Assembly (NCBI GenBank): GCA_902511005.1
Contig: CABXDN010000002.1
Location: 77,595-141,594 of the forward strand
DNA from: an uncultured Candidatus Poseidoniales archaeon
Lineage (GTDB): Archaea > Thermoplasmatota > Poseidoniia > Poseidoniales > Thalassarchaeaceae
Length of the DNA: 64,000 nt
Direction of reading: 5' to 3'
The notes under the pieces are model-generated. The model was not told the DNA's origin. It was given only the letters and a program-made list of their open reading frames with translations, and made no database searches. Position numbers and translations under genes: made by a program. Of the stretch, positions 36,105-63,983 are shown piece by piece; the stretch's first letter is position 1; each line of letters begins with the position of its first letter.

Positions 36105-37088
36105 ATGACTATGGCAGCCAGTGACCCGAAGTCCCGTGAGTTAATTCAAACGGTTTCGCAAATTTCAAATGCATTAATGAATGAAGTTTCCAAGGTAATT
36201 ATTGGCAAACAAGAAAACCTTCGAAGAGTGTCTGTAGGTATACTATCAAACGGAAATATGCTGATTGAAGATTTCCCTGGACTAGCTAAGACTTTGATGG
36301 CTAACACATTCGCTACTGCACTTGGTTGCAAGTTCAAGCGTGTTCAATTTACTCCAGATCTTCTACCTGCAGATATCATGGGGACATACATGTATGATCA
36401 ACAAGCTGGTGAGTTCAAACTACGTCCTGGCCCTCTTTTCACAAACGTACTTCTGGCTGACGAGATTAACCGTGCTCCACCTAAGACACAAGCTGCTTTA
36501 CTAGAAGCGATGGAAGAAAAGCAAGTAACAATTGAAGGTATTACTCACAAATTACCAGCTCCATTCATTACAATGGCTACACAAAATCCAATTGAACAAG
36601 AAGGGACTTATCCTCTACCAGAAGCACAGATGGACCGTTTCTTGATGAAGATGTCAATGGGATACCCTAACAGGCAAGAAGAGAAGGCAATTTTACAGCG
36701 AAGAAAACTTCGAGGTAAAGATGACCACGAAGTTGAACAAATCACATCTCCAAAGAAAGTAGTTGCAATGCAAAAGGCTCTGGAAACAGTACATGTTGAC
36801 CCAGCAATCATGTCTTACATCGTTGAACTCGTACACCGTACACGTGAAGATCACAGAGTAATTACTGGTGCTTCACCTCGTGCTAGTCAGTCACTATTCA
36901 AGACTAGTCGTGCAAGCGCTGCAATTGATGGTAGAGACTATGTTATACCTGACGATATCAAGAATGTTGCACTTCAAGTTGTAAGCCACAGAATCGTATT
37001 GAAACCTGAGTCAAAAATTCGTGGAGTAACAGGTCAACATCTAATGCGAAAAATCCTTTCAGAAGTACCAGTACCGGTAATTCAGTGA
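36105..37088 (+). CDS. moxR: MoxR family AAA+ ATPase
   Basis: PGLAKT, RVQFTPDLLPAD, LADEINRAPPKTQ, ATQNPIEQEGTYPLPEAQMDRF. Confidence 0.95.
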   Translation: MTMAASDPKSRELIQTVSQISNALMNEVSKVIIGKQENLRRVSVGILSNGNMLIEDFPGLAKTLMANTFATALGCKFKRVQFTPDLLPADIMGTYMYDQQAGEFKLRPGPLFTNVLLADEINRAPPKTQAALLEAMEEKQVTIEGITHKLPAPFITMATQNPIEQEGTYPLPEAQMDRFLMKMSMGYPNRQEEKAILQRRKLRGKDDHEVEQITSPKKVVAMQKALETVHVDPAIMSYIVELVHRTREDHRVITGASPRASQSLFKTSRASAAIDGRDYVIPDDIKNVALQVVSHRIVLKPESKIRGVTGQHLMRKILSEVPVPVIQ

Positions 37089-37144
37089 GAATTTAGCCAA
37101 CAGGATTGAACACCTTCAGTCTTCCCAGACCATTAGTGAAGAGC

Positions 37145-38053
37145 ATGGCGAAGCCAATAGTAGTTGCAGTTGTCAACCATAAAGGTGGTTGTTCGAAGAC
37201 AACTACTGCAGTTAATCTCGCTGCGGCCTTAGCTACAGGTAATATCGAAATGGGAATTAAATCCCGTAGAGTATTACTTGTTGACTTGGACCCTAAGGGA
37301 AACGTTGCAACTACTTTTGGAATAGATAAAAGGACACTCGGAGCAACGATGAATGAATTATTCAAAGGTGGAATTGATGGGACACAAGTTAATCTCAATC
37401 AATGCCTATTAGGTCCAGGGAATCTTACACAATCAATGAAAAAATCTTGGAGAAAACATAATCCAGAGAAAAAACGCGGACCTCCAAAAGAAATTGCTAT
37501 CAATAATTTGTGGATTTTACCAGCAGACTTAGATCTTTCTGGCGTAGAAATCGATTTGGCTACTAGATTTGGTAGAGAAGCAAGATTAAAATCTGTTTTA
37601 CATCAGGCACAAGAACACTTTGACGTTATCATCATAGATACACCTGCATCACTTGGACTATTGACTACTAATGCGCTAACTGCGGCGCAATGGGTACTAA
37701 TTCCAATACAAGCTGAGTTTTATGCATTAGAAGGAATGGGGCAATTAATGAATACAATCAAAAATGTTCAGAAAGCTGTAAATCCTGAACTGAAATTATT
37801 CGGAATTGTTTTGACAATGGTTCAATCTCGTAGCAAATTATGTGAAACGGTAGCTGAGCAAGCAAGGAAACATTTTGGAGATCGTGTTTTCAAAACACAA
37901 ATTGCAAGATCAATTGCAATAGCTGAATCACCGTTAGAAGGAGCACCAATTGTTATTGCTAAAAAACCGAATAAATCTAATCCAGCATGTCAGAATCTTT
38001 GGGATTTTGCTAAAGAAGCGGATTTAAGAATTAAAATAATCTTAGGCAACTAA
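37145..38053 (+). CDS. parA: ParA/Soj family ATPase (paralogue 1)
   Basis: Deviant Walker A HKGGCSKTT, VDLDPKGN, IIDTP, PIQAEFYALEG. Confidence 0.9.
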   Translation: MAKPIVVAVVNHKGGCSKTTTAVNLAAALATGNIEMGIKSRRVLLVDLDPKGNVATTFGIDKRTLGATMNELFKGGIDGTQVNLNQCLLGPGNLTQSMKKSWRKHNPEKKRGPPKEIAINNLWILPADLDLSGVEIDLATRFGREARLKSVLHQAQEHFDVIIIDTPASLGLLTTNALTAAQWVLIPIQAEFYALEGMGQLMNTIKNVQKAVNPELKLFGIVLTMVQSRSKLCETVAEQARKHFGDRVFKTQIARSIAIAESPLEGAPIVIAKKPNKSNPACQNLWDFAKEADLRIKIILGN

Positions 38054-39150
38054 TTTTCAGATACCTTTTCAAGAGTGGATTGTTTAGCGTCTAGTATTAT
38101 TTTTTCCCATTTAACCTTCAATTGAGACTCAAGAGATTTCATAATTTCATTGACCTCTTTCTTAGATATGTCAGTCCTTTTAGAGAACTGTTCATCTAAC
38201 GTAGAAAGTAATTCGGTTTCTCTTTCTTTAGCATATGTAGCAACTCGTTGTTCCATCTCAACTTCACTTTCTAAAGCCAATTCTTGCCGACGAAGTGAAA
38301 GAGCAGCTTCCATTGTCTTTCTCTCTGCCCTAAACCTTCTATCTAAATCGGATAAGGCATTTTGTTCCGCTTCTTCTTCAAGAGATTTCGTCCTAACATC
38401 AACATCAGTTAACATATCTTTTTCTAGTGATTTACGTTCGCTTTTAAGTTGCTTATCTAATTCAGATTCTCTTGATTTTCGTGCTTCTGCTAGCCTTTCA
38501 CGCATCTGAATCTCTTGATCTAGACGATAAGACTCAGCTTTTCTATGAACCTGAGATTCCATGACTTCACGAAGATCCATTTCTACTCTTCTTTCCATCC
38601 TCTCTAAATCTTGATTTGCTTCTAATTCTAATCTTTCATTCAAGAATGCTTGACGACGAGTAAGTGCAATCTCCATCTCGCCTTTCAATCTAGTACGTAA
38701 TTTTGAGGTATGAGCTTCAATACGCCTGTCTCTTTCCAAATCTAATTGTTCTCTTAATCGATTTTCTTCTCGACGTAATCTGTGTAACATTTCTTCACGA
38801 AGAAGTCTTTCTTCTCGTTCTAGTGCTTCAGTTTCAAGACGTTCCATCTCATCTTCAAGACCTGCACGTAGATCTGCTTCGATATTTTGCAACTGTTCTT
38901 CAAATAGAATTTCATTTGCTTTTCTTATTGCCCCATGCATTCCTGAGACTCTTTCTGTCATCTCAGCAATACGCATTCTTCTCTCTCTTCGAATACTAGA
39001 CCTTAGTTTGGATTCTTCATCAAGTCTATCGCGAGCTCTAGCCACTGAATCCAGAGTAGAGGATGCTGAAAGAACATGTTGAGCACGAAGGCTCGATAAC
39101 TCCTCGATACCTTCGGTATCATTCTCAGTTGGCGACTTGCTTTCACTCAT
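38050..39150 (-). CDS. Long E/R/L-rich coiled-coil protein
   Basis: 366 aa, almost devoid of Pro/Gly, heptad-like E/R/L pattern. Confidence 0.75.
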   Translation of the reverse strand: MSESKSPTENDTEGIEELSSLRAQHVLSASSTLDSVARARDRLDEESKLRSSIRRERRMRIAEMTERVSGMHGAIRKANEILFEEQLQNIEADLRAGLEDEMERLETEALEREERLLREEMLHRLRREENRLREQLDLERDRRIEAHTSKLRTRLKGEMEIALTRRQAFLNERLELEANQDLERMERRVEMDLREVMESQVHRKAESYRLDQEIQMRERLAEARKSRESELDKQLKSERKSLEKDMLTDVDVRTKSLEEEAEQNALSDLDRRFRAERKTMEAALSLRRQELALESEVEMEQRVATYAKERETELLSTLDEQFSKRTDISKKEVNEIMKSLESQLKVKWEKIILDAKQSTLEKVSEN

Positions 39151-56119: not shown

Positions 56120-56695
56120 TTGTGTGAATCTCTTGGAACTGTTGTGCACAAACTTATCGCAGTTGCTATTGTTATGATTTTAGCATTCAATGTTACTGCC
56201 TCTGAACAAGGAGGATTTAACGAAGAAACTCCCGTAGAAGGAACTGATATTGCCTCCATTGACTATCATCATCAGGCATCCGCTGGAGAACTGTTTGGTA
56301 TTAATGTAGAATTAACAAAAAATGCTCAAAATAATACTACTAATATAAATTGGGTCACTCAAATATGTATTAACTCAGGAATCTGCTACCCACCAGAAAC
56401 TAACCCTCTAGAATATAGAGAAAATGGGATGTGGAACGGATCAATTACCCCTGGAGATCATGTGACCTATGTTAATTGGAGAATTGACTTAATAGACTCT
56501 AATGAAAATGTAACAAAGGTCCCTGAAAATGGATTCGGATGGAAAGTGTGGTCTGATTGTTGGTATGATGGAAGCGACTGGGGGGGAAATGATAGTTCAT
56601 GTCAAGAAGATAATGATGACAACGTCCCTGGTTTCATTACACCACTAACTCTGGCAGCAATAGGGACAGCAGGTTTGATGGCTCGACGCGACTGA
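56120..56695 (+). CDS. Secreted protein with PGF-CTERM sorting signal
   Basis: N-terminal signal peptide; C-terminal VPGF + TM + RRD. Confidence 0.75.
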   Translation: MCESLGTVVHKLIAVAIVMILAFNVTASEQGGFNEETPVEGTDIASIDYHHQASAGELFGINVELTKNAQNNTTNINWVTQICINSGICYPPETNPLEYRENGMWNGSITPGDHVTYVNWRIDLIDSNENVTKVPENGFGWKVWSDCWYDGSDWGGNDSSCQEDNDDNVPGFITPLTLAAIGTAGLMARRD

Positions 56696-57389: not shown

Positions 57390-58343
57390 TCACTCATTTG
57401 TAGAAGGTGTAAAGAAAATTAAAGCGACTCCTGAGCCAATAATTAGAAGACCTCCTATGATGATTTTAGTACTCAACACTTCATCAAATAATATTATTCC
57501 ATATATTGTTGCAATTATCACAGTAAGATATGAAAATGCACTAACCCAAGCGGCATTTGCCTGATGGTATGCCATTGTTATTCCGACTTGACCGCCTCCT
57601 GCCCCTACTCCAATTCCTACTAATGCTGCAGTCATTTCCCAAGTAAGACTAGATAATTCAGGTGCTGCTTGGAAAACTGAACCTAATACAGAAAATGCTG
57701 CAAACCAAAATACAACTGTTGAGGGAGAATCTGTCTTTCTTAAATCACGAACAAAAATATATGCTAAACCTGCAAAGAAACCAGATCCTAGAGCCAATAA
57801 TGCATTAGGATCTATACTATCTAAATCGGGGGAAACAATTAATATAATTCCAAAAAATGCCGTAATTAATGAAATTAGTACTGAAGTAGATACTTTTTCA
57901 CGGATTATGCTTCCTGATAAAAGTGCTACAAATAAAGGAGCAGTATACTGTAGTGTTACTGCTTGACCGATTGGAATTAAAGACAGAGCTGAGAAATATA
58001 GTATCATAGCAATTAATCCAACTAAACATCGCAGAAACATCTTTCTTGGATCATTCATTTTGAGACTGATTCCCTGAAATCTAGCAAATATTGCAACGGC
58101 TAAAGCAATAACTAGAGAACGAATAAAAATTATCATCCAAACATCAGCATTTATCGAAGTCCATTTGACAAGTGCATTCATAGTTCCAAAGCAAATACTC
58201 CCAAATATCATCCAAAGAACTGCGACTTTAGGTGAATCAACAGGGTTCTTTGATTCTAATGTAACATAAGATGAAAGATCTGGGCCATCTTTTGCCAGTT
58301 CAGATATAGATTCAAGCCCTCGGCCAAGTCCTTTAGATGACAT
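57390..58343 (-). CDS. EamA/DMT transporter with N-terminal ParB-like LGRGL peptide
   Basis: About 10 TMs, FIRS, LQYTAPLF..IREKV; N-terminus MSSKGLGRGLESISEL. Confidence 0.9.
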   Translation of the reverse strand: MSSKGLGRGLESISELAKDGPDLSSYVTLESKNPVDSPKVAVLWMIFGSICFGTMNALVKWTSINADVWMIIFIRSLVIALAVAIFARFQGISLKMNDPRKMFLRCLVGLIAMILYFSALSLIPIGQAVTLQYTAPLFVALLSGSIIREKVSTSVLISLITAFFGIILIVSPDLDSIDPNALLALGSGFFAGLAYIFVRDLRKTDSPSTVVFWFAAFSVLGSVFQAAPELSSLTWEMTAALVGIGVGAGGGQVGITMAYHQANAAWVSAFSYLTVIIATIYGIILFDEVLSTKIIIGGLLIIGSGVALIFFTPSTNE

Positions 58344-59291
58344 CTAAATAAGACTCCATCGTTTTTCTAGAACACTTGAAACACCCTGATAATCTTGACC
58401 ACCATTACTATTTGGATCATGAAGATGAATAGGGACGCCATGACTAGGGGCCTCGGCTAATTTGATATTTCTACGAATAGCGGGATGAATGACAAATTCT
58501 GGTAAATGATCTAAAATTTCTGAGGCTACCTGCTGATTTAGAAGGGTACTTGCATGCATTGTCAACAATACACCATCAACTCCTAATTGAGGATTGAGAA
58601 GATTTCTAACTTCCCTTAGAGTTCCTGCTAACATTGCTAATCCCTCTAGAGCAAAGTATTCTGTTTGAACTGGTATCAATACACCATCACTAGCCACTAA
58701 TGCGTTGATTGTCACTAAACCTAAAGATGGAGGAGTGTCAATTATCACAATATCATAATGTGGCAATAATGGCTGTAAAGCTTCAGTCAATCTTCTTTCT
58801 CTACCTAACTGACGCAACATTTCTTGCTCTAGACCTACTAAACTTCTATCACCGACAATCATATGTAACCCTTCTACTGCTGTAGCATGACGTGCTGTAA
58901 CTGCTGTTTCAGGAGATAATATCAGATCTCTAGTTGTGTGTTGGACCTTACTTTTGTCAACTCCTAAACCAGTAGCACAATTGCCCTGAGAATCGGCATC
59001 AACTACCAATACTCGATGACCACGTAAAGCAAGTTGAGATGCGATATTAATTACAGTAGTTGTTTTTCCAACACCTCCTTTCTGATTAATTACAGTAACC
59101 ACTCTAGCACGCCCACTGGGAGTTGGAGATGGAAATGGTAAGTCTAATGGTTTACTCGTTCTTTGAGTCGGAAGAGGATTTAATTCATCAATAGAAGTTT
59201 GAATATCTTCTTCCTCAGTAAATTCTGCATCAATTATCAATGGGACATTTTCAACTTCAGGAAGTCGAGTGCCTTCATCTTCGATGGACAT
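58344..59291 (-). CDS. parA: ParA/Soj family ATPase (paralogue 2) with acidic N-terminal extension
   Basis: NQKGGVGKTT, DADSQGN, IIDTPPSLG, PVQTEYFALEG, LAEAPSHG; start placed at ATG 59291. Confidence 0.93.
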   Translation of the reverse strand: MSIEDEGTRLPEVENVPLIIDAEFTEEEDIQTSIDELNPLPTQRTSKPLDLPFPSPTPSGRARVVTVINQKGGVGKTTTVINIASQLALRGHRVLVVDADSQGNCATGLGVDKSKVQHTTRDLILSPETAVTARHATAVEGLHMIVGDRSLVGLEQEMLRQLGRERRLTEALQPLLPHYDIVIIDTPPSLGLVTINALVASDGVLIPVQTEYFALEGLAMLAGTLREVRNLLNPQLGVDGVLLTMHASTLLNQQVASEILDHLPEFVIHPAIRRNIKLAEAPSHGVPIHLHDPNSNGGQDYQGVSSVLEKRWSLI

Positions 59292-59374
59292 ACAAGCGCC
59301 TTCGGCGCTTAGAAGGGAGTTGAATGTGCCGCTAGAATCAGAGGTAAATCTATTCAATTCAATGGTCGGTCAGA

Positions 59375-61627
59375 TTAACCGATAACTTCAGCCCAAGCAA
59401 GCATTCTTCCATTTTGAGCATCCATTGCGAAATTTACACTATGTTCACGATTAGAATCTGTCCATTCTCTACTCCCTACAACTAACACTTGTCCTTCTGT
59501 TAAATCACCAGGAAGGAAGGAAAGTAGATCATTCTCTTCAGATACTGATAGCCTGTAACCATAGGTCGTACCAACTAAATCATGAGATACCTGTAAATCT
59601 TGATATCTATTATCATCAAGAATCCTATCTTCTAAATTCTTCAATGTGTGTGTCGATGGTATAGCATCTTGATTCCAGGTAATTTCGCCATCATTTCTTC
59701 TCTCGCTCTCAAAGGAACACCCATCATTTTGACGAACTATTGCCCATCCTGAAGTCTCATCAGAACGAACCCAAGAGAGATTCCATTCTTCGAAACCGCC
59801 ATTGTCATCTTCATTATAAGAATAAATTGCTTGCCAAATATAGCCCTCCGAATCAATTGCAACAGTAATATCACGATTAGTATGATTGGCCCGTAAACAG
59901 TTAGTTGCATCTTCTAGACTGAAACTTCTAATTTCCGATTCATCCCACATAGCAGTAGACCAATCTTTCTTTGCTGATTCACTTAATTTATCCTCACCGG
60001 GTCCGGGTCGGCTCACATAGGTGGAACCCCAAGAAATTGATTTAGTACCTGAATCTGAGGTTATTTCACTCATTTTCATATTTATTCTCAAGGTACCTTC
60101 TGGTAAAGCTGCATCAGTTGCTGTACTCTCAATAAAACTACAGTCAGACGTACTCTGATCTTTATCGATCAAAACATCGACTATTTGTTCAACGGGCCAA
60201 GGCACCCCATTTTTAACTAAAATATCAATATTCATTCTACCAAGACATCTTTCAACTTCTGTATGGGTAATTTCAACCGGATAAACTAGGCCGTAACCTT
60301 CTTTTCTCTGTTCAATACCAACGGACCATTTCCAATCTTTATTCCAATCAGACAAGTCCTCAGACTTCATCCCAGATTCTAACTTAATATCTCCAAAAAA
60401 TTCATGTAATTCAATAGGGGTGAGTGGGAAGGTCAATAATGTAGCAATTCCATCTAAATTACTAAACCCATCAACGCCAAAAGTTACGATGTTCGCGTTT
60501 GTTCTAACATTATCAATATCAGTAAAAGATATCGCAGATTCAGATCTTAAGAGACTATGTTCTGCTAGTTCATCATAAATATCTGTAGTCATTTCAAGTT
60601 GATTACCAGATAGTGACCAACCGAGATTACCACAAACATTTGTGCTTCTATCTTTCCAAGTCTTACCCTCCAAATCAACAGTAAGGCTGTGAGTAACTCT
60701 TTGTTGAACAGTCAAATGAGAACGGCCATATGCATCTTTCGCAGAAACTGTACCTTGTAAATCGGTTACAGTTTTATCAACCGGATGTGTGATTTCATCA
60801 TCATTTCCTTTGATAATTTCAATTGAACCGGTCCCTCCAATATTTACTGTTAATCGATTACATGCATCTTGAATTGCAGTATCAGGCAATAAGTCTCTCA
60901 ATAAAGAAACCATTTCATCGCCTTCAAAATCAATTAGTCCGTCACTCAAGGTAAAAGTCATTGAATCTTCGTAATTTAGAGGCCGTGCTTGAAACGAAGA
61001 ATCAGAGGAAAGAAAGTAAAATACACCTGCTCCAACGAGTAAAATAACTACAAATACTGCTGAAATCTGAGGCCAGTATGTTTTGAAAATATCCAATGAA
61101 GGAAGTGTGATGGTCAGAGAAGGTTTCTCAATATCTTCATTCGAATCGATGAAATCTTTCTTAGTGTCTGTAAATTCAGTAGAGCCCCAAGAATCTTCTT
61201 CATCTAATATCAGAGATTCTCCCACTATTTTGTCTACAGAAGGAGCCGGTTCTTCGAGAATTTCCGCCTCTAATATTTCTGCCACCATGACCTCATTTTT
61301 AGTAATCTCTTCTGAAGGAATAGTAATACTTTCTTTAATATCAACGCGTGATATTAAACGATCTATCGCATCATCAATATCTCTAGATGAACGGATTTTA
61401 TCTTTAGTTTCAATAACAGGAGGTTGAACCTGATTTATTTCAGCCATATCCTCTTCGAGAAATAATTCACCATCTTCTTGATTTGTAGAAGCATTTTCTA
61501 AAATCCTCACAATTAACTCTGCTTTATTACCTGAGATTAATAATTGGCTGTTTTTGCATATCTCTCTTAACTCTGAAACCTTCATTTTTGATAATGAGTC
61601 GAAGCTAAAAGACTCGTCGTCGGCCAT
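59375..61627 (-). CDS. SAP-domain bitopic membrane protein with large extracellular domain
   Basis: LSKMKVSELREICKNSQLLISGNKAELIVRI (SAP), acidic linker, TM ISAVFVVILLVGAGVFYFL, about 530-aa C-terminal region; start placed at ATG 61627. Confidence 0.8.
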   Translation of the reverse strand: MADDESFSFDSLSKMKVSELREICKNSQLLISGNKAELIVRILENASTNQEDGELFLEEDMAEINQVQPPVIETKDKIRSSRDIDDAIDRLISRVDIKESITIPSEEITKNEVMVAEILEAEILEEPAPSVDKIVGESLILDEEDSWGSTEFTDTKKDFIDSNEDIEKPSLTITLPSLDIFKTYWPQISAVFVVILLVGAGVFYFLSSDSSFQARPLNYEDSMTFTLSDGLIDFEGDEMVSLLRDLLPDTAIQDACNRLTVNIGGTGSIEIIKGNDDEITHPVDKTVTDLQGTVSAKDAYGRSHLTVQQRVTHSLTVDLEGKTWKDRSTNVCGNLGWSLSGNQLEMTTDIYDELAEHSLLRSESAISFTDIDNVRTNANIVTFGVDGFSNLDGIATLLTFPLTPIELHEFFGDIKLESGMKSEDLSDWNKDWKWSVGIEQRKEGYGLVYPVEITHTEVERCLGRMNIDILVKNGVPWPVEQIVDVLIDKDQSTSDCSFIESTATDAALPEGTLRINMKMSEITSDSGTKSISWGSTYVSRPGPGEDKLSESAKKDWSTAMWDESEIRSFSLEDATNCLRANHTNRDITVAIDSEGYIWQAIYSYNEDDNGGFEEWNLSWVRSDETSGWAIVRQNDGCSFESERRNDGEITWNQDAIPSTHTLKNLEDRILDDNRYQDLQVSHDLVGTTYGYRLSVSEENDLLSFLPGDLTEGQVLVVGSREWTDSNREHSVNFAMDAQNGRMLAWAEVIG

Positions 61628-61761
61628 GGTTAACAGGCTTAGTCGAATAGGTGAGTCTTTCAATACCTTCCTTCTTCTGTGTTACAGAATGGCCAGTAGT
61701 GGATAAAAATACGATTTACGGAGGCAAAGAACTCAAGAAGGGTAGGAGGCCGCGACAAAAT

Positions 61762-62721
61762 ATGGACCCTCGATTGGTAATTCTATCTCGTGGGCCGCAG
61801 TTGTACTCAACTAAACGTCTTGCGGAAGAGGCTGAAAAGGTAGGATGGGACGTTAGAATTCTAGATCCTCTCTCACTAACAGTCGTAGTAGATGATAAAG
61901 GAGGTAGAATTTTTCACAAAGGATGGGAAATTAAATGTGAAGCGATTATACCGAGAATTGGATATTCGATTACTGATAGAGGAGTCCCTATAGTACGTCA
62001 GTTTGAAAGAATGGGAGTTATTGTAATGAACTCTGGCGATGGGATAATAAGGAGTAGAAACAAACTAATCGCGTGCCAAATGATGTCTGCAGGAAATATT
62101 CCTGTGCCCGTTACCGCTCAAATAGTATCTTGGGAAGATACAAACAGAGCAATTAACAGAGTAGGAGGAACTCCTTGCGTAGTAAAATCAACTCAAGGAA
62201 CACATGGAGCGGGCGTCTTTTTAGCACATACTGATCAACATGCTAGGCAATTAGTCTATCAAATGTTAGAAAGAGGGATGAGACCTCTCATTCAAGAATA
62301 TATCAAAGAGTCTCATGGAAAGGATATACGTGCATTAGTAGTTGGAGGAAAAGTAGTAGCCTGTATGCGTCGAAGAGCAAATGGAGATGAATTTCGTTCA
62401 AATTTTCATCTAGGAGGAAGTGTAGAAAAAGTCCAAATAGACCCGAAATTCGAGACTATTGCTATTGAAGCAGCAAATATTTTAGGACTTGAAATTGCAG
62501 GTGTAGATTTACTAGAATCAGAAAGAGGTGCTCTTGTTTTAGAAGTAAACTCAAGTCCTGGATTAGAAGGTATTGAGAAAGCATCAGAAAAAAATGTAGC
62601 GGGAGCTGTGGCTGAAAGACTCAATCAATTACTACAAAATTCTGATCAAGATGATGGTGATTTATCTGCTAATTTTCAGGATTCAAATCATAGTAAAACA
62701 GGTAGTTTCTCAGAATACTAA
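61762..62721 (+). CDS. rimK: RimK-family ATP-grasp alpha-L-glutamate ligase
   Basis: LYSTKRL, IPRIG, GTHGAGV, QEYIKE..GKDIR, FRSNFHLGG, EVNSSPGLEGIE. Confidence 0.92.
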   Translation: MDPRLVILSRGPQLYSTKRLAEEAEKVGWDVRILDPLSLTVVVDDKGGRIFHKGWEIKCEAIIPRIGYSITDRGVPIVRQFERMGVIVMNSGDGIIRSRNKLIACQMMSAGNIPVPVTAQIVSWEDTNRAINRVGGTPCVVKSTQGTHGAGVFLAHTDQHARQLVYQMLERGMRPLIQEYIKESHGKDIRALVVGGKVVACMRRRANGDEFRSNFHLGGSVEKVQIDPKFETIAIEAANILGLEIAGVDLLESERGALVLEVNSSPGLEGIEKASEKNVAGAVAERLNQLLQNSDQDDGDLSANFQDSNHSKTGSFSEY

Positions 62722-62834
62722 TTTTTGATATCGGCATTTAGAATATTCAGCAGAAAAGGCCCCTCCTCCACTAGAATAGGAGAAGCATTCAAGTCCAAGC
62801 AGGGAACCTTGGGCTTGTCCATAAGGGACATGGG

Positions 62835-63983
62835 ATGCGCGTCGTTCGCGACGATGAGGCGAGGGAATTGACTAAACAGAATGAACAGATTGACAACTCT
62901 TGGGTGGATGAAAAACCACAAAATGAGTCTGATTTAAGCAGTAGTGAATTATTAATTCATACAAAGAATCTACCTCAAAGACTTCAGAGATTAGCATTAT
63001 TACCTTGGTTCGAATGTTGGAAACAGCAACTACGAACTGAGAAAAAAAGTGAGCATACCATTAGAGCATATGTTGTAGCAGCAAAAACATTCACTATTAC
63101 ATCATTACCTAATGAAGAAAATGAAACATGGGATACCATACAGAATCTCCGAGTTTCAGAGTTGTTTACTAGAAGTAACCCAAATAATGGTCGAATTGAT
63201 TCATGGCTAAATACAATTGGAGAATTACGGCCAGCAACTATCAATGCAAGGATTGCAGCAATTACTCATCTTCTAAAATGGCTAGGATATACGATTCCTG
63301 AGTGGATTCAAAGACCCAGTAGATCAAGATCTTTGCCTCGAACTTTAGGAAAAAGTGATTTGAAAAAAGTTAGACTTGCAGCAACTAGATCGGAGGATCC
63401 AATAGCATTTCCAATTATTACAATGATGCTGGATACTGGATTGAGATGTTCAGAAATTTGTAATTTAGACTTAGATGACGTAGATTTAGATGATTTGTCA
63501 GCCTTAGTAATTGGAGGAAAAGGAGAGAAAGATCGTACTGTTCTTTTTACTAATGCTACATTAAATGCTTTAGAATCTTGGAGGCCAATAAGAAATGCAA
63601 GATTGAAATCTTGTACTAGAAAAGACGATGAAAGATCGTTATTCTTTTCCAGTAGGAGTAGAAGATTGAACCCCCGGTCTGTTCAAAAGTTACTTGATCG
63701 AATTGCAGATGCTTCCGATATACCAAGGTCAAGACTCAGCCCCCACGTTCTAAGGCACTCTTTTGCTACTGGATTATTGGAAAGAGGCGCCGATTTAGTA
63801 ACAATACAGAGACTTCTAGGGCATGCTAATATTTCCACTACAAGAGTATACTTAGAGATTGGTGATCAAACGCTCAGAGAAATTTACCACCGTGCGCAAT
63901 CATCACAAGAAAATGATAAAAATGAAAGTGATGAAGAAATTTCTACAGGAAATAAAATTGAAAGTGCGCCAATAATTGAATGA
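62835..63983 (+). CDS. xerA: Tyrosine recombinase XerA
   Basis: LPRTL, TGLRCSE, GKGEKDR, SPHVLRHSFAT, LLGH, TTRVY; housekeeping context. Confidence 0.88.
   Translation: MRVVRDDEARELTKQNEQIDNSWVDEKPQNESDLSSSELLIHTKNLPQRLQRLALLPWFECWKQQLRTEKKSEHTIRAYVVAAKTFTITSLPNEENETWDTIQNLRVSELFTRSNPNNGRIDSWLNTIGELRPATINARIAAITHLLKWLGYTIPEWIQRPSRSRSLPRTLGKSDLKKVRLAATRSEDPIAFPIITMMLDTGLRCSEICNLDLDDVDLDDLSALVIGGKGEKDRTVLFTNATLNALESWRPIRNARLKSCTRKDDERSLFFSSRSRRLNPRSVQKLLDRIADASDIPRSRLSPHVLRHSFATGLLERGADLVTIQRLLGHANISTTRVYLEIGDQTLREIYHRAQSSQENDKNESDEEISTGNKIESAPIIE

Follow-up and report, generated by a model that had tools for sequence, protein, structure and literature searches.

In the ParABS system of Myxococcus xanthus, as described in the parts of PMC12462528 that treat the ParA-ParB interface, arginine R13 of ParB docks near ParA residues Y81, E82, D110 and E117. 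ParB-stimulated ATPase activity is abolished by the ParA substitution Y81L, non-specific DNA binding is abolished by R238E, and an extra positive charge beside Y81 "may mimic" the ParB arginine (PMC12462528, same parts). The McdAB and PpfA/ParC chemoreceptor systems follow a logic that the locus described below would share, with a nucleoid-bound ATPase whose lifetime is limited by a partner peptide (available sections of PMC11407121). Among archaea the closest precedent comes from Haloferax volcanii, whose HpaAB system has a ParA of bacterial origin followed immediately downstream by the gene for a small, previously unannotated partner whose N-terminus is proposed to contact the ATPase (available sections of PMC13722703). 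Here we analyze a locus of related design from an uncultured Poseidoniales (Marine Group II) archaeon. The DNA studied, called the window below, is a stretch of 64,000 nucleotides (contig C2:77595-141594) in a 35-contig, 1.30 Mb assembly that is 72% complete. Three minus-strand open reading frames (ORFs) encode, in this order, a SAP-domain protein with a single transmembrane (TM) helix (SAP-TM), a ParA ATPase and an EamA-family permease, and genes for a RimK-family ligase and a Xer-type recombinase are divergent from them (Table 1). A first-pass annotation of the window had described this arrangement of three co-oriented and two divergent genes, and all five were recovered at the same positions. 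We propose that the locus represents a lineage-specific, ParB-less ParA module of the Poseidoniales in which the switch peptide would be displayed by an envelope protein, a reading that we regard as evenly balanced between right and wrong.

The permease matches PF00892 (E 4e-25), with two EamA repeats and 10 hydrophobic segments. Its 39-residue N-terminal tail begins M-S-S-K-G-L-G-R-G-L, with the motif at residues 5-10. The pattern LG[RK]GL occurs in just one of the 1313 ORFs of at least 100 amino acids in the entire assembly, and that ORF is this permease. As a bacterial control we used 80 loci retrieved with the ParA as query of genome contigs (39-49% identity), a query that returned 80 bacterial Soj homologues and no archaeal locus. 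Of the 69 control loci with an ORF downstream of the Soj homologue, 60 had the same pattern within the first 60 residues of that ORF. Because the motif is unique in the genome and so regular in the bacterial control, we take it to be the N-terminal motif of ParB, standing in the parB position. Lysine and arginine together number 15 in the even loops of the permease, N-terminal tail included, versus 2 in the odd loops, a charge bias that predicts a cytoplasmic location for the tail. Residues 1-40 match 74 database proteins, every one of them an EamA protein; their source names read "DMT family transporter", and some come from metagenome-assembled genomes of Thalassarchaeaceae or Poseidoniales.

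The permease is not the original partner of this ParA. In a survey of 151 Poseidoniales genomes (22 genera in three families, f1 to f3), EamA orthologues were found in 47 genomes, all of them in seven genera of f1 and always beside ParA; the peptide is present in 12 of the 17 orthologues that were aligned and absent from 5. Outside these genera the gene downstream of ParA is a small ORF of 130-160 amino acids, whose N-terminus reads (K/R)-x-G-L-G-R-G-L-d-d-L-l-x-Q-x-x-t-D-L-P-F-L-d-A-Y-G and is homologous to the EamA tail (G-L-G-R-G-L-...-D-G-P-D-L-S-S-F/Y-V). A profile search recovered the small protein in 96 of the 151 genomes, whereas the seven EamA genera, with 53 genomes including the window's own, yielded no match. 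The two partners are thus mutually exclusive (96 versus 47 genomes, none with both), which argues for replacement in place with some 28 N-terminal residues retained. We conclude that the small orphan protein, a disordered N-terminal peptide joined to a compact alpha/beta domain, is the ancestral partner, and that in the window's subclade the globular domain has, as the sequences are best read, been swapped in place for a 10-TM EamA permease with the peptide kept on its predicted cytoplasmic tail. The first-pass annotation had taken EamA as an original half of the system, a claim that does not hold for a protein limited to seven genera of one family, where it replaced a small soluble peptide carrier. 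Its proposal that EamA activates ParA survives in part: the ParB-type motif, the parB position and the predicted cytoplasmic tail are in its favor, whereas the restriction to seven genera and the many orthologues without peptide (see below) are not.

In the AlphaFold2 (AF2) model of the small protein, the N-terminus is disordered and residues 52-155 form a confident alpha/beta domain (predicted local distance difference test score, pLDDT, >90). No Pfam family and no PDB sequence matched the protein. Among 1.84 billion cluster representatives 92 relatives were found at E ≤ 0.001, all of them of 264 amino acids or fewer except one 1609-residue protein for which no matched stretch is listed. These relatives yielded no fusion to a ParB domain and no wider family; eight of the sequences were read, and two of the longer ones among them are ParA read-through fragments. 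An Atlas search with the small protein returned its own clusters only, and a Foldseek search of the domain against the PDB returned nothing at E ≤ 0.001. The best VIA-align scores, for frataxin-like YdhG (Z 7.7), YjbR (7.2) and the C-terminal DNA-binding domain of T4 MotA (6.8), fall in the common noise range, and none of these folds was assigned; the resemblance to MotA and YjbR serves as a lead only, a possible hint of DNA binding. At one f2 locus (L136) the frame upstream of the small-ORF start reads ...K-R-L-K-R-G-L-E-D-L-I-R-Q-N with no ATG, GTG or TTG before it, reflecting either a non-canonical start or a peptide that is being lost.

The state of the peptide follows the presence of ParA. 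ParA was detected at E ≤ 1e-104 in 68 of the 75 f1 genomes (the window's own genome included), plus one in which it lies in two pieces (G002), and in both f2 genomes. Within f3 it occurs in 8 of 74 genomes, confined to genera g19, g20 and g22, and the remaining 66 contain only a paralogue (E about 1e-31 to 1e-36). N-termini of the small protein were read at 90 loci, four that the pattern had misread being taken from direct reads. The full LG[RK]GL motif is found at 21 of 27 loci from ParA-containing genomes, spread over the three families, versus 1 of 63 from genomes without ParA; the corresponding figures are 24 of 27 versus 17 of 63 for GRGL and 27 of 27 versus 37 of 63 for RGL, in a tally where kin are not independent and the ParA-less genera may represent one or two loss events. 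Decay in the ParA-less genera takes a different form in each: x-R-G-L after acidic residues in g16, x-R-D-L in g15, A-R-G-L in g18, (S/T)-G-R-G-L at the very start in g17, and S-L in g21. The stretch that follows the motif, L-D-H-L-M-E-Q-N-x-T-x-L-x-F-L-S-A-Y-G, is kept in every one of them. This is the tally expected of a motif dedicated to ParA ahead of a helix that is independent of it. The sole ParA-less genome with an intact L-G-R-G-L is G060, a member of g15.

The ATPase itself matches AAA_31 (E 7.8e-54) and CbiA (9.7e-23) in Pfam, and its PDB matches are 8RAY (2.5e-58, the best), Soj of T. thermophilus (1WCV, 2.4e-51) and Soj of H. pylori (6IUB, 1.1e-42). The deviant Walker A motif is intact (K-G-G-V-G-K-T in the window, K-G-G-V-G/A-K-T in all aligned orthologues), and the proteins are 54-97% identical across genera and mostly read without stops. 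The archaeal clade also conserves an N-terminal extension, acidic and about 84 residues long, of the type L-P-E-V-E-x-A-P-L-V-I-D-V-E-F-x-E. In a tree of 40 archaeal and 76 bacterial homologues rooted with the window's ParA paralogue, the 40 archaeal tips form one clade (support 1.0) on a stem of 0.97 substitutions per site. The protein is a Soj-type ParA of bacterial ancestry.

The M. xanthus interface residues were mapped onto the window ParA through the ungapped 8RAY alignment and then counted. Y81 corresponds to R143; this position is tyrosine in 78 of 80 bacterial proteins, and in 39 archaeal proteins it is arginine in 34, lysine in 3 and histidine in 2. E82 corresponds to D144, D110 to S172, which is variable in the archaeal clade, and E117 to E179, a glutamate in 30 of 39 archaeal proteins. 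R238 corresponds to K299, and arginine or lysine occupies this position in 76 of 80 bacterial and 38 of 39 archaeal proteins. A different picture was obtained for the arginine of TMxDxR, which we take to be R189 of B. subtilis Soj: it is present in 78 of 80 bacterial versus 6 of 40 archaeal proteins. The first-pass annotation had pointed out that the window ParA reads T-M-H-A-S-T-L-L where Soj carries an arginine, and the count bears out the loss. Since the second DNA-binding basic residue is retained as K299, we do not conclude that DNA binding has been lost. By sequence, then, the archaeal clade has kept one putative DNA-binding residue, lost another, and put a basic residue where bacterial ParA senses the arginine of its partner. 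The conserved basic residue at the docking site argues against fully canonical activation. An arginine or lysine of the R143 type may make the archaeal ParA partly partner-independent, and such partial independence would explain why the peptide has been lost repeatedly.

The SAP domain of SAP-TM matches PF02037 at E 9.5e-9 (35.1 bits, gathering score 23.9) and weakly resembles the SAP domains of SIZ1 and MKL1 in single-sequence matches; it stands at the N-terminus throughout the aligned orthologues. One cysteine precedes and six follow the single hydrophobic segment, and the N-flanks ahead of the TM helix are strongly basic in the orthologues. The AF2 model (mean pLDDT 71.8) comprises the SAP domain at residues 21-60 (helices 29-38 and 47-60, pLDDT 83-90), a helix at 94-105, a disordered acidic linker at 106-190, the TM helix at 191-219 and an ectodomain at 223-762 (pLDDT mostly 80-95). 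Because the N-flanks are basic and six of the seven cysteines lie in the C-terminal ectodomain, the SAP domain is predicted to be on the cytoplasmic side; the first-pass annotation had named an extracellular SAP domain as an objection to its own reading, and charge and cysteine distribution instead put the domain inside. Foldseek matches of the ectodomain to TbpB, DUF1849, AttH and LolA-like proteins reached TM-scores, by query, of only 0.06-0.17, and Atlas returned just uncharacterised Thermoplasmatota clusters and a lead to DUF3108 at 0.76; no fold was assigned from either search.

A full-length SAP-TM orthologue was found in 147 of the 151 Poseidoniales genomes, order-wide and also where ParA is absent; the other four are without ParA too, which suggests assembly gaps. 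Among 251 genomes sampled from the phylum outside the order no full-length orthologue was found, and the matches obtained were at the level of the SAP domain only, in 7 of 7 genomes of a sister family (query positions about 5-50) plus one weak match elsewhere. Further ORFs with an N-terminal SAP-like domain occur in the window's genome (G000:C1:92421-92702 and G000:C15:26589-26708, both on the minus strand; E 4e-15 and 1.4e-9 to the SAP-TM profile), and SAP-bearing ORFs of 200-660 amino acids recur across the order and the sister family; the archaeal class seems unusually rich in SAP modules. A conserved acidic motif is found in each of two proteins of the locus, I-L-E-A-E-I-L-E in the SAP-TM linker (61244-61291, residues about 125-140) and I-I-D-A-E-F-T-E in ParA (59230-59260, residues about 33-48), with hydrophobic and acidic residues alternating in both. 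A pattern designed post hoc on these motifs matches 5 of 1313 ORFs, SAP-TM and the ParA N-terminal extension included, and we treat the apparent likeness as a lead only.

A search with PF02195 (ParB/Srx) returned nothing in the window's genome (72% complete) or in seven other genomes of the genus. Across the order 31 of 151 genomes gave marginal matches (11 over the cut-off); at the loci that were read, four in all (L245-L248), the matches are to ORFs of 131-171 amino acids with 26-31 bits, which lack the peptide and are not beside ParA. These small ParB/Srx-like ORFs adjoin a ribosomal-protein-like gene. The earlier statement that the locus has no canonical ParB is therefore upheld for the genus, and for the order as far as these marginal short ORFs allow. 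Our literature search, which covered main texts, found no description of this module.

SAP-TM lies directly upstream of ParA in 36 of 40 ParA loci fetched and searched with tblastn, so the SAP-TM-ParA part of the gene order for which the first-pass annotation had asked a synteny check is conserved. At three of the remaining loci (L120, L136 and L145) SAP-TM is cut by the contig end or was missed by tblastn, and at the fourth (L147) the distance to a SAP-TM match upstream is about 3.8 kb. The genes usually present on the other side of SAP-TM, across the order, are those of RimK and the recombinase. In the window the ATG of EamA abuts the ParA stop codon, and 17 nt separate the end of SAP-TM from the longest ParA ORF. 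Logan contigs assembled from RNA libraries of two studies span the entire stretch in 3 of 4 runs examined; contigs X1 and X5 bridge junction 58343/58344, and X5 and X6 bridge junction 59357/59375. These contigs are compatible with an operon, while a single transcript, its strand and its expression level are not readable from them.

Table 1. Features of the SAP-TM-ParA-EamA locus and its divergent neighbors (window positions).
Feature	Position	Strand	Size or residues	Description or basis
SAP-TM protein	59375..61663	-	762 aa	predicted cytoplasmic SAP, a short helix and a disordered acidic linker ahead of one TM helix, then a large beta-rich ectodomain with conserved Cys
SAP domain	61496..61594	-	residues 24-56	PF02037
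Conserved acidic motif in SAP-TM cytoplasmic linker (V-x-E-A-E-hydrophobic-hydrophobic-E-A-E type)	61244..61291	-		orthologue alignment
Single TM helix of SAP-TM	61010..61066	-	residues 200-218	hydropathy scan; AF2 helix 191-219
Soj-type ParA ATPase	58344..59357	-	337 aa	Pfam, NCBIfam and PDB matches
EamA/DMT permease in parB position	57390..58343	-	317 aa	PF00892
EamA N-terminal tail with ParB-type motif (K-G-L-G-R-G-L ... D-G-P-D-L-S-S-Y-V)	58263..58334	-	residues 4-27	sequence, homology
RimK-family ATP-grasp ligase	61651..62721	+		TIGR00768, 238 bits, above cut-off; divergent neighbor
Xer-type tyrosine recombinase	62835..63983	+		Phage_integrase, E 1.7e-35; divergent neighbor

The recombinase scores 183.8 bits with XerA_Arch (NF040815, cut-off 220) and 180.1 bits with XerC (cut-off 335), and falls short of every Xer equivalog cut-off; about 60 residues precede its SAM-like domain as an N-terminal extension (62835-63010). 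Proximity of the locus to the origin or terminus was considered and rejected on two single-contig genomes: the nearest orc1/cdc6 gene is 0.52 Mb away in one of 1.60 Mb and 0.29 Mb away in one of 2.06 Mb, so that the locus is neither adjacent to the origin nor opposite to it. The first-pass annotation had proposed its position relative to the replication terminus as a check, and the outcome goes against a terminus location. A 191-residue protein encoded beside the module (56120-56695, plus strand) is conserved there and ends in a PGF-CTERM-like tail (P-G-F, a hydrophobic stretch and R-R-D), which suggests an archaeosortase-processed surface protein; in g15 genomes with a displaced SAP-TM, its gene has remained with that of the small partner. 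The window also contains a second ParA/MinD-family gene (37106-38053, plus strand, 315 amino acids), which keeps the arginine in T-M-V-Q-S-R and is flanked by a MoxR-type AAA gene before it (36105-37088, plus strand) and a convergent 366-residue coiled-coil-rich ORF after it (38050-39150, minus strand). Matches at E about 1e-31 to 1e-39, probably to this paralogue, are found in genomes across the order, and it could be the general positioning ATPase of the cell.

In the mechanism we propose, ATP-bound ParA dimers would sit on the nucleoid through the retained K299, and the peptide, shown at the membrane by EamA and elsewhere by the small protein, would capture ParA and trigger ATP hydrolysis. 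A ParA gradient on the nucleoid would then be read by an envelope-embedded partner instead of a centromere-bound ParB, with SAP-TM as a possible direct tether between DNA and membrane. The likely output would be to set the relative positions of nucleoid and envelope, either by spacing membrane sites over the nucleoid or by keeping the nucleoid in place along the membrane and partitioning it there. We infer a role in chromosome segregation, and a part in it for SAP-TM, from this scheme. A stronger form of the proposal, which we think improbable, is an envelope-anchored, ParB-less handling of the nucleoid in which SAP-TM tethers DNA, a Soj-type ParA gained by horizontal transfer, rewired to ParB peptides at the membrane and with its docking-site arginine, moves or spaces the tethers along the nucleoid, and the chromosome is partitioned by envelope attachment with no centromere complex; if true, the order-wide SAP-TM would be a prokaryotic counterpart of the HeH/LEM tethers of the nuclear envelope.

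A number of observations weigh against a ParB-less module with an envelope-displayed switch peptide. Binding, ATPase activity, DNA binding and localization of its proteins are all predicted. The peptide is dispensable in many of the permeases: 21 of the 47 EamA orthologues (~45%) do not align over it (query start at residue 9 or later) with the ParA neighbor intact, and in four genomes with a peptide-less EamA no other protein with an N-terminal GLGRGL was found, pattern matches being at the control level and none at an ORF start. With the Y81 equivalent replaced by R, K or H in 39 of 39 archaeal ParA proteins and D110 not conserved, canonical docking of the peptide arginine is doubtful. The arginine and the following helix are kept in most ParA-less lineages, which indicates that some of the peptide serves a role without ParA. 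SAP-TM is retained in all 66 genomes of five genera without this ParA and is to that extent independent of it. Moreover, the entire 10-kb region is collinear across the order, with BCAT, SRP19, S8e, PUA, the PGF-CTERM-like protein and a nitroreductase, so that the presence of SAP-TM next door says little, on its own, about function. In genus g15, SAP-TM (with RimK and Xer) lies 100-130 kb from the small gene in G003, G044 and G056 (the G003 distance is counted across contig ends and holds if the contig is circular) and on a different contig in G012. The small gene of g15 stays with the block from BCAT to PGF-CTERM while its position relative to SAP-TM varies (loci L179-L184), adjoining SAP-TM in G060 and separated from it by two large inserted genes in G034. 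Finally, DNA carry-over in the RNA libraries may account for the bridging contigs.

Other explanations draw on the same data. The first-pass annotation had envisaged a split ParB, in which SAP-TM binds DNA and the LGRGL-bearing EamA activates ParA in a dedicated ParB-less segregation system working with XerA. The cytoplasmic SAP prediction, the ParB-type peptide on EamA and the failure to find a canonical ParB stand from this idea, and the conserved SAP-TM-ParA order and the presence of xerA near most loci also agree with it. We nevertheless consider it unlikely as a whole, for EamA is a replacement of a soluble partner in 7 genera and has lost the peptide in 21 of 47 cases, SAP-TM is kept in the 66 genomes without this ParA, and the locus has neither of the origin-related positions considered above. 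The link to xerA drops out as well: its adjacency belongs to a general collinearity with SRP19, ribosomal protein S8e and the PUA protein, and since such housekeeping genes are equally collinear, the neighborhood carries little functional weight. ParA might instead distribute a protein and not DNA over the nucleoid, as in the McdAB, PpfA-TlpT or HpaAB type, with the binding partner of the small protein, or EamA and its membrane companions, as cargo and SAP-TM either a mere neighbor or the cargo itself. Partners of ParA/MinD ATPases commonly act by an N-terminal peptide (available sections of PMC13722703 and PMC11407121), the globular part of the partner has proved exchangeable, as for an adaptor with a changeable cargo end, and the small protein matches no recognizable DNA-binding family. 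Cargo positioning is nonetheless doubtful, because no cargo is identifiable, a single permease is not what one would expect a nucleoid-based gradient to carry, the fold matches of the small protein are in the noise range (best Z 7.7), and the adjacency of SAP-TM and the small gene outlasts ParA loss in g16, g17, g18 and g21, where the small gene directly follows SAP-TM; this last point links the small protein to SAP-TM and not to an unrelated cargo.

The locus might also be a decaying relic of a bacterial parAB pair that was acquired once, its ParB cut down to a peptide and the remnants left to drift, with the gene order reflecting general collinearity. The absence of ParA from 66 of the 74 sampled f3 genomes, the erosion or loss of the peptide in many lineages, the replaced docking tyrosine and the long stem of the ParA clade (0.97 substitutions per site) could be read in this way. 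Drift would not be expected, however, to leave ParA 54-97% identical across genera and mostly stop-free, with its Walker motifs kept throughout, or to preserve the motif in 26 of 47 EamA orthologues and, among the 27 small-protein loci with ParA, at 21. Arginine or lysine at position 143 is conserved in 37 of 39 proteins, which speaks for selection and not drift, and we regard the relic explanation as very improbable.

New in this analysis are the exclusivity of the two partners, the tally of motif against ParA, the peptide loss in EamA, the change of Y81 to arginine or lysine, the retention of the R238 equivalent, the orc1/cdc6 distances and the RNA-library contigs. The locus can be viewed as a natural experiment in ParA wiring, in which a 10-residue switch peptide of ParB was kept, the rest of ParB discarded, and the peptide moved from a small soluble protein to a permease, while the ATPase changed the residue with which bacterial ParA senses the peptide arginine. 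It thereby bears on how ParA/MinD ATPases gain new partners, and predicts a peptide-stimulated ATPase, a role for R143 and DNA binding by the SAP domain. If true, the module would be the first such ATPase to be read out by an integral membrane transporter, beside a eukaryote-type SAP module facing the nucleoid. Marine Group II archaea are uncultured and among the most abundant planktonic archaea, and chromosome handling is unknown in most archaea. The locus hints that chromosome and cell envelope may be coupled in a way not described before.

Compared with the chromosomal ParABS (Soj-Spo0J-parS) of bacteria, exemplified by M. xanthus ParAB (8RAY; available sections of PMC12462528), the module shares a Soj-type ParA with a deviant Walker A motif, 42-49% identical to bacterial homologues, a basic residue at the R238 equivalent, and a partner gene directly downstream that starts with LG(R/K)GL. 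Unlike in ParABS, the partner has no ParB/Srx CTPase domain, helix-turn-helix or dimerization domain and is a permease or a small orphan protein; the archaeal ParA has R, K or H at the Y81 equivalent, has mostly lost the TMxDxR arginine and carries the ~84-residue acidic extension; and the locus is not origin-proximal, with no parS known for the module and no parS search made. Judged by its sequences, the module thus falls outside ParABS in two respects, the ParB domains and the arginine pocket, and appears closest to the ParA-partner pair of ParABS or of the adaptor type. With adaptor-type partners it has the gene order and the N-terminal peptide in common, and a contact between peptide and ATPase would be expected. 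The cargos of such systems named in the available sections of PMC11407121 are microcompartments, flagella or archaella, chemoreceptor arrays and conjugation or secretion machinery, and these sections name no transporter and no SAP membrane protein. HpaAB differs in that HpaB is a ribbon-helix-helix centromere-binding protein of a secondary chromosome and HpaA clusters with MipZ (available sections of PMC13722703), whereas the Poseidoniales module combines a Soj-like ParA, the canonical ParB motif, an alpha/beta or permease partner and a SAP membrane protein ahead of ParA. As for the membrane proteins, each has relatives of its own. The HeH/LEM/SAP tethers of the eukaryotic inner nuclear membrane hold, like SAP-TM, a helix-extended-helix module of DNA-binding type at a membrane facing the chromosome. 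Noc, a ParB paralogue, recruits DNA to the membrane (available sections of PMC8429893), an outcome comparable to that of the proposed SAP-TM tether. SAP-TM differs from both in having no homology past the SAP motif, one TM helix, a 540-residue ectodomain and a DNA-binding activity that is only predicted. The permease, finally, shares the two EamA repeats and 10 hydrophobic segments of EamA/DMT transporters (PF00892; YddG-type), and is set apart from them by its predicted cytoplasmic 39-residue tail with the ParB motif and by a gene fixed in the parB position beside ParA.

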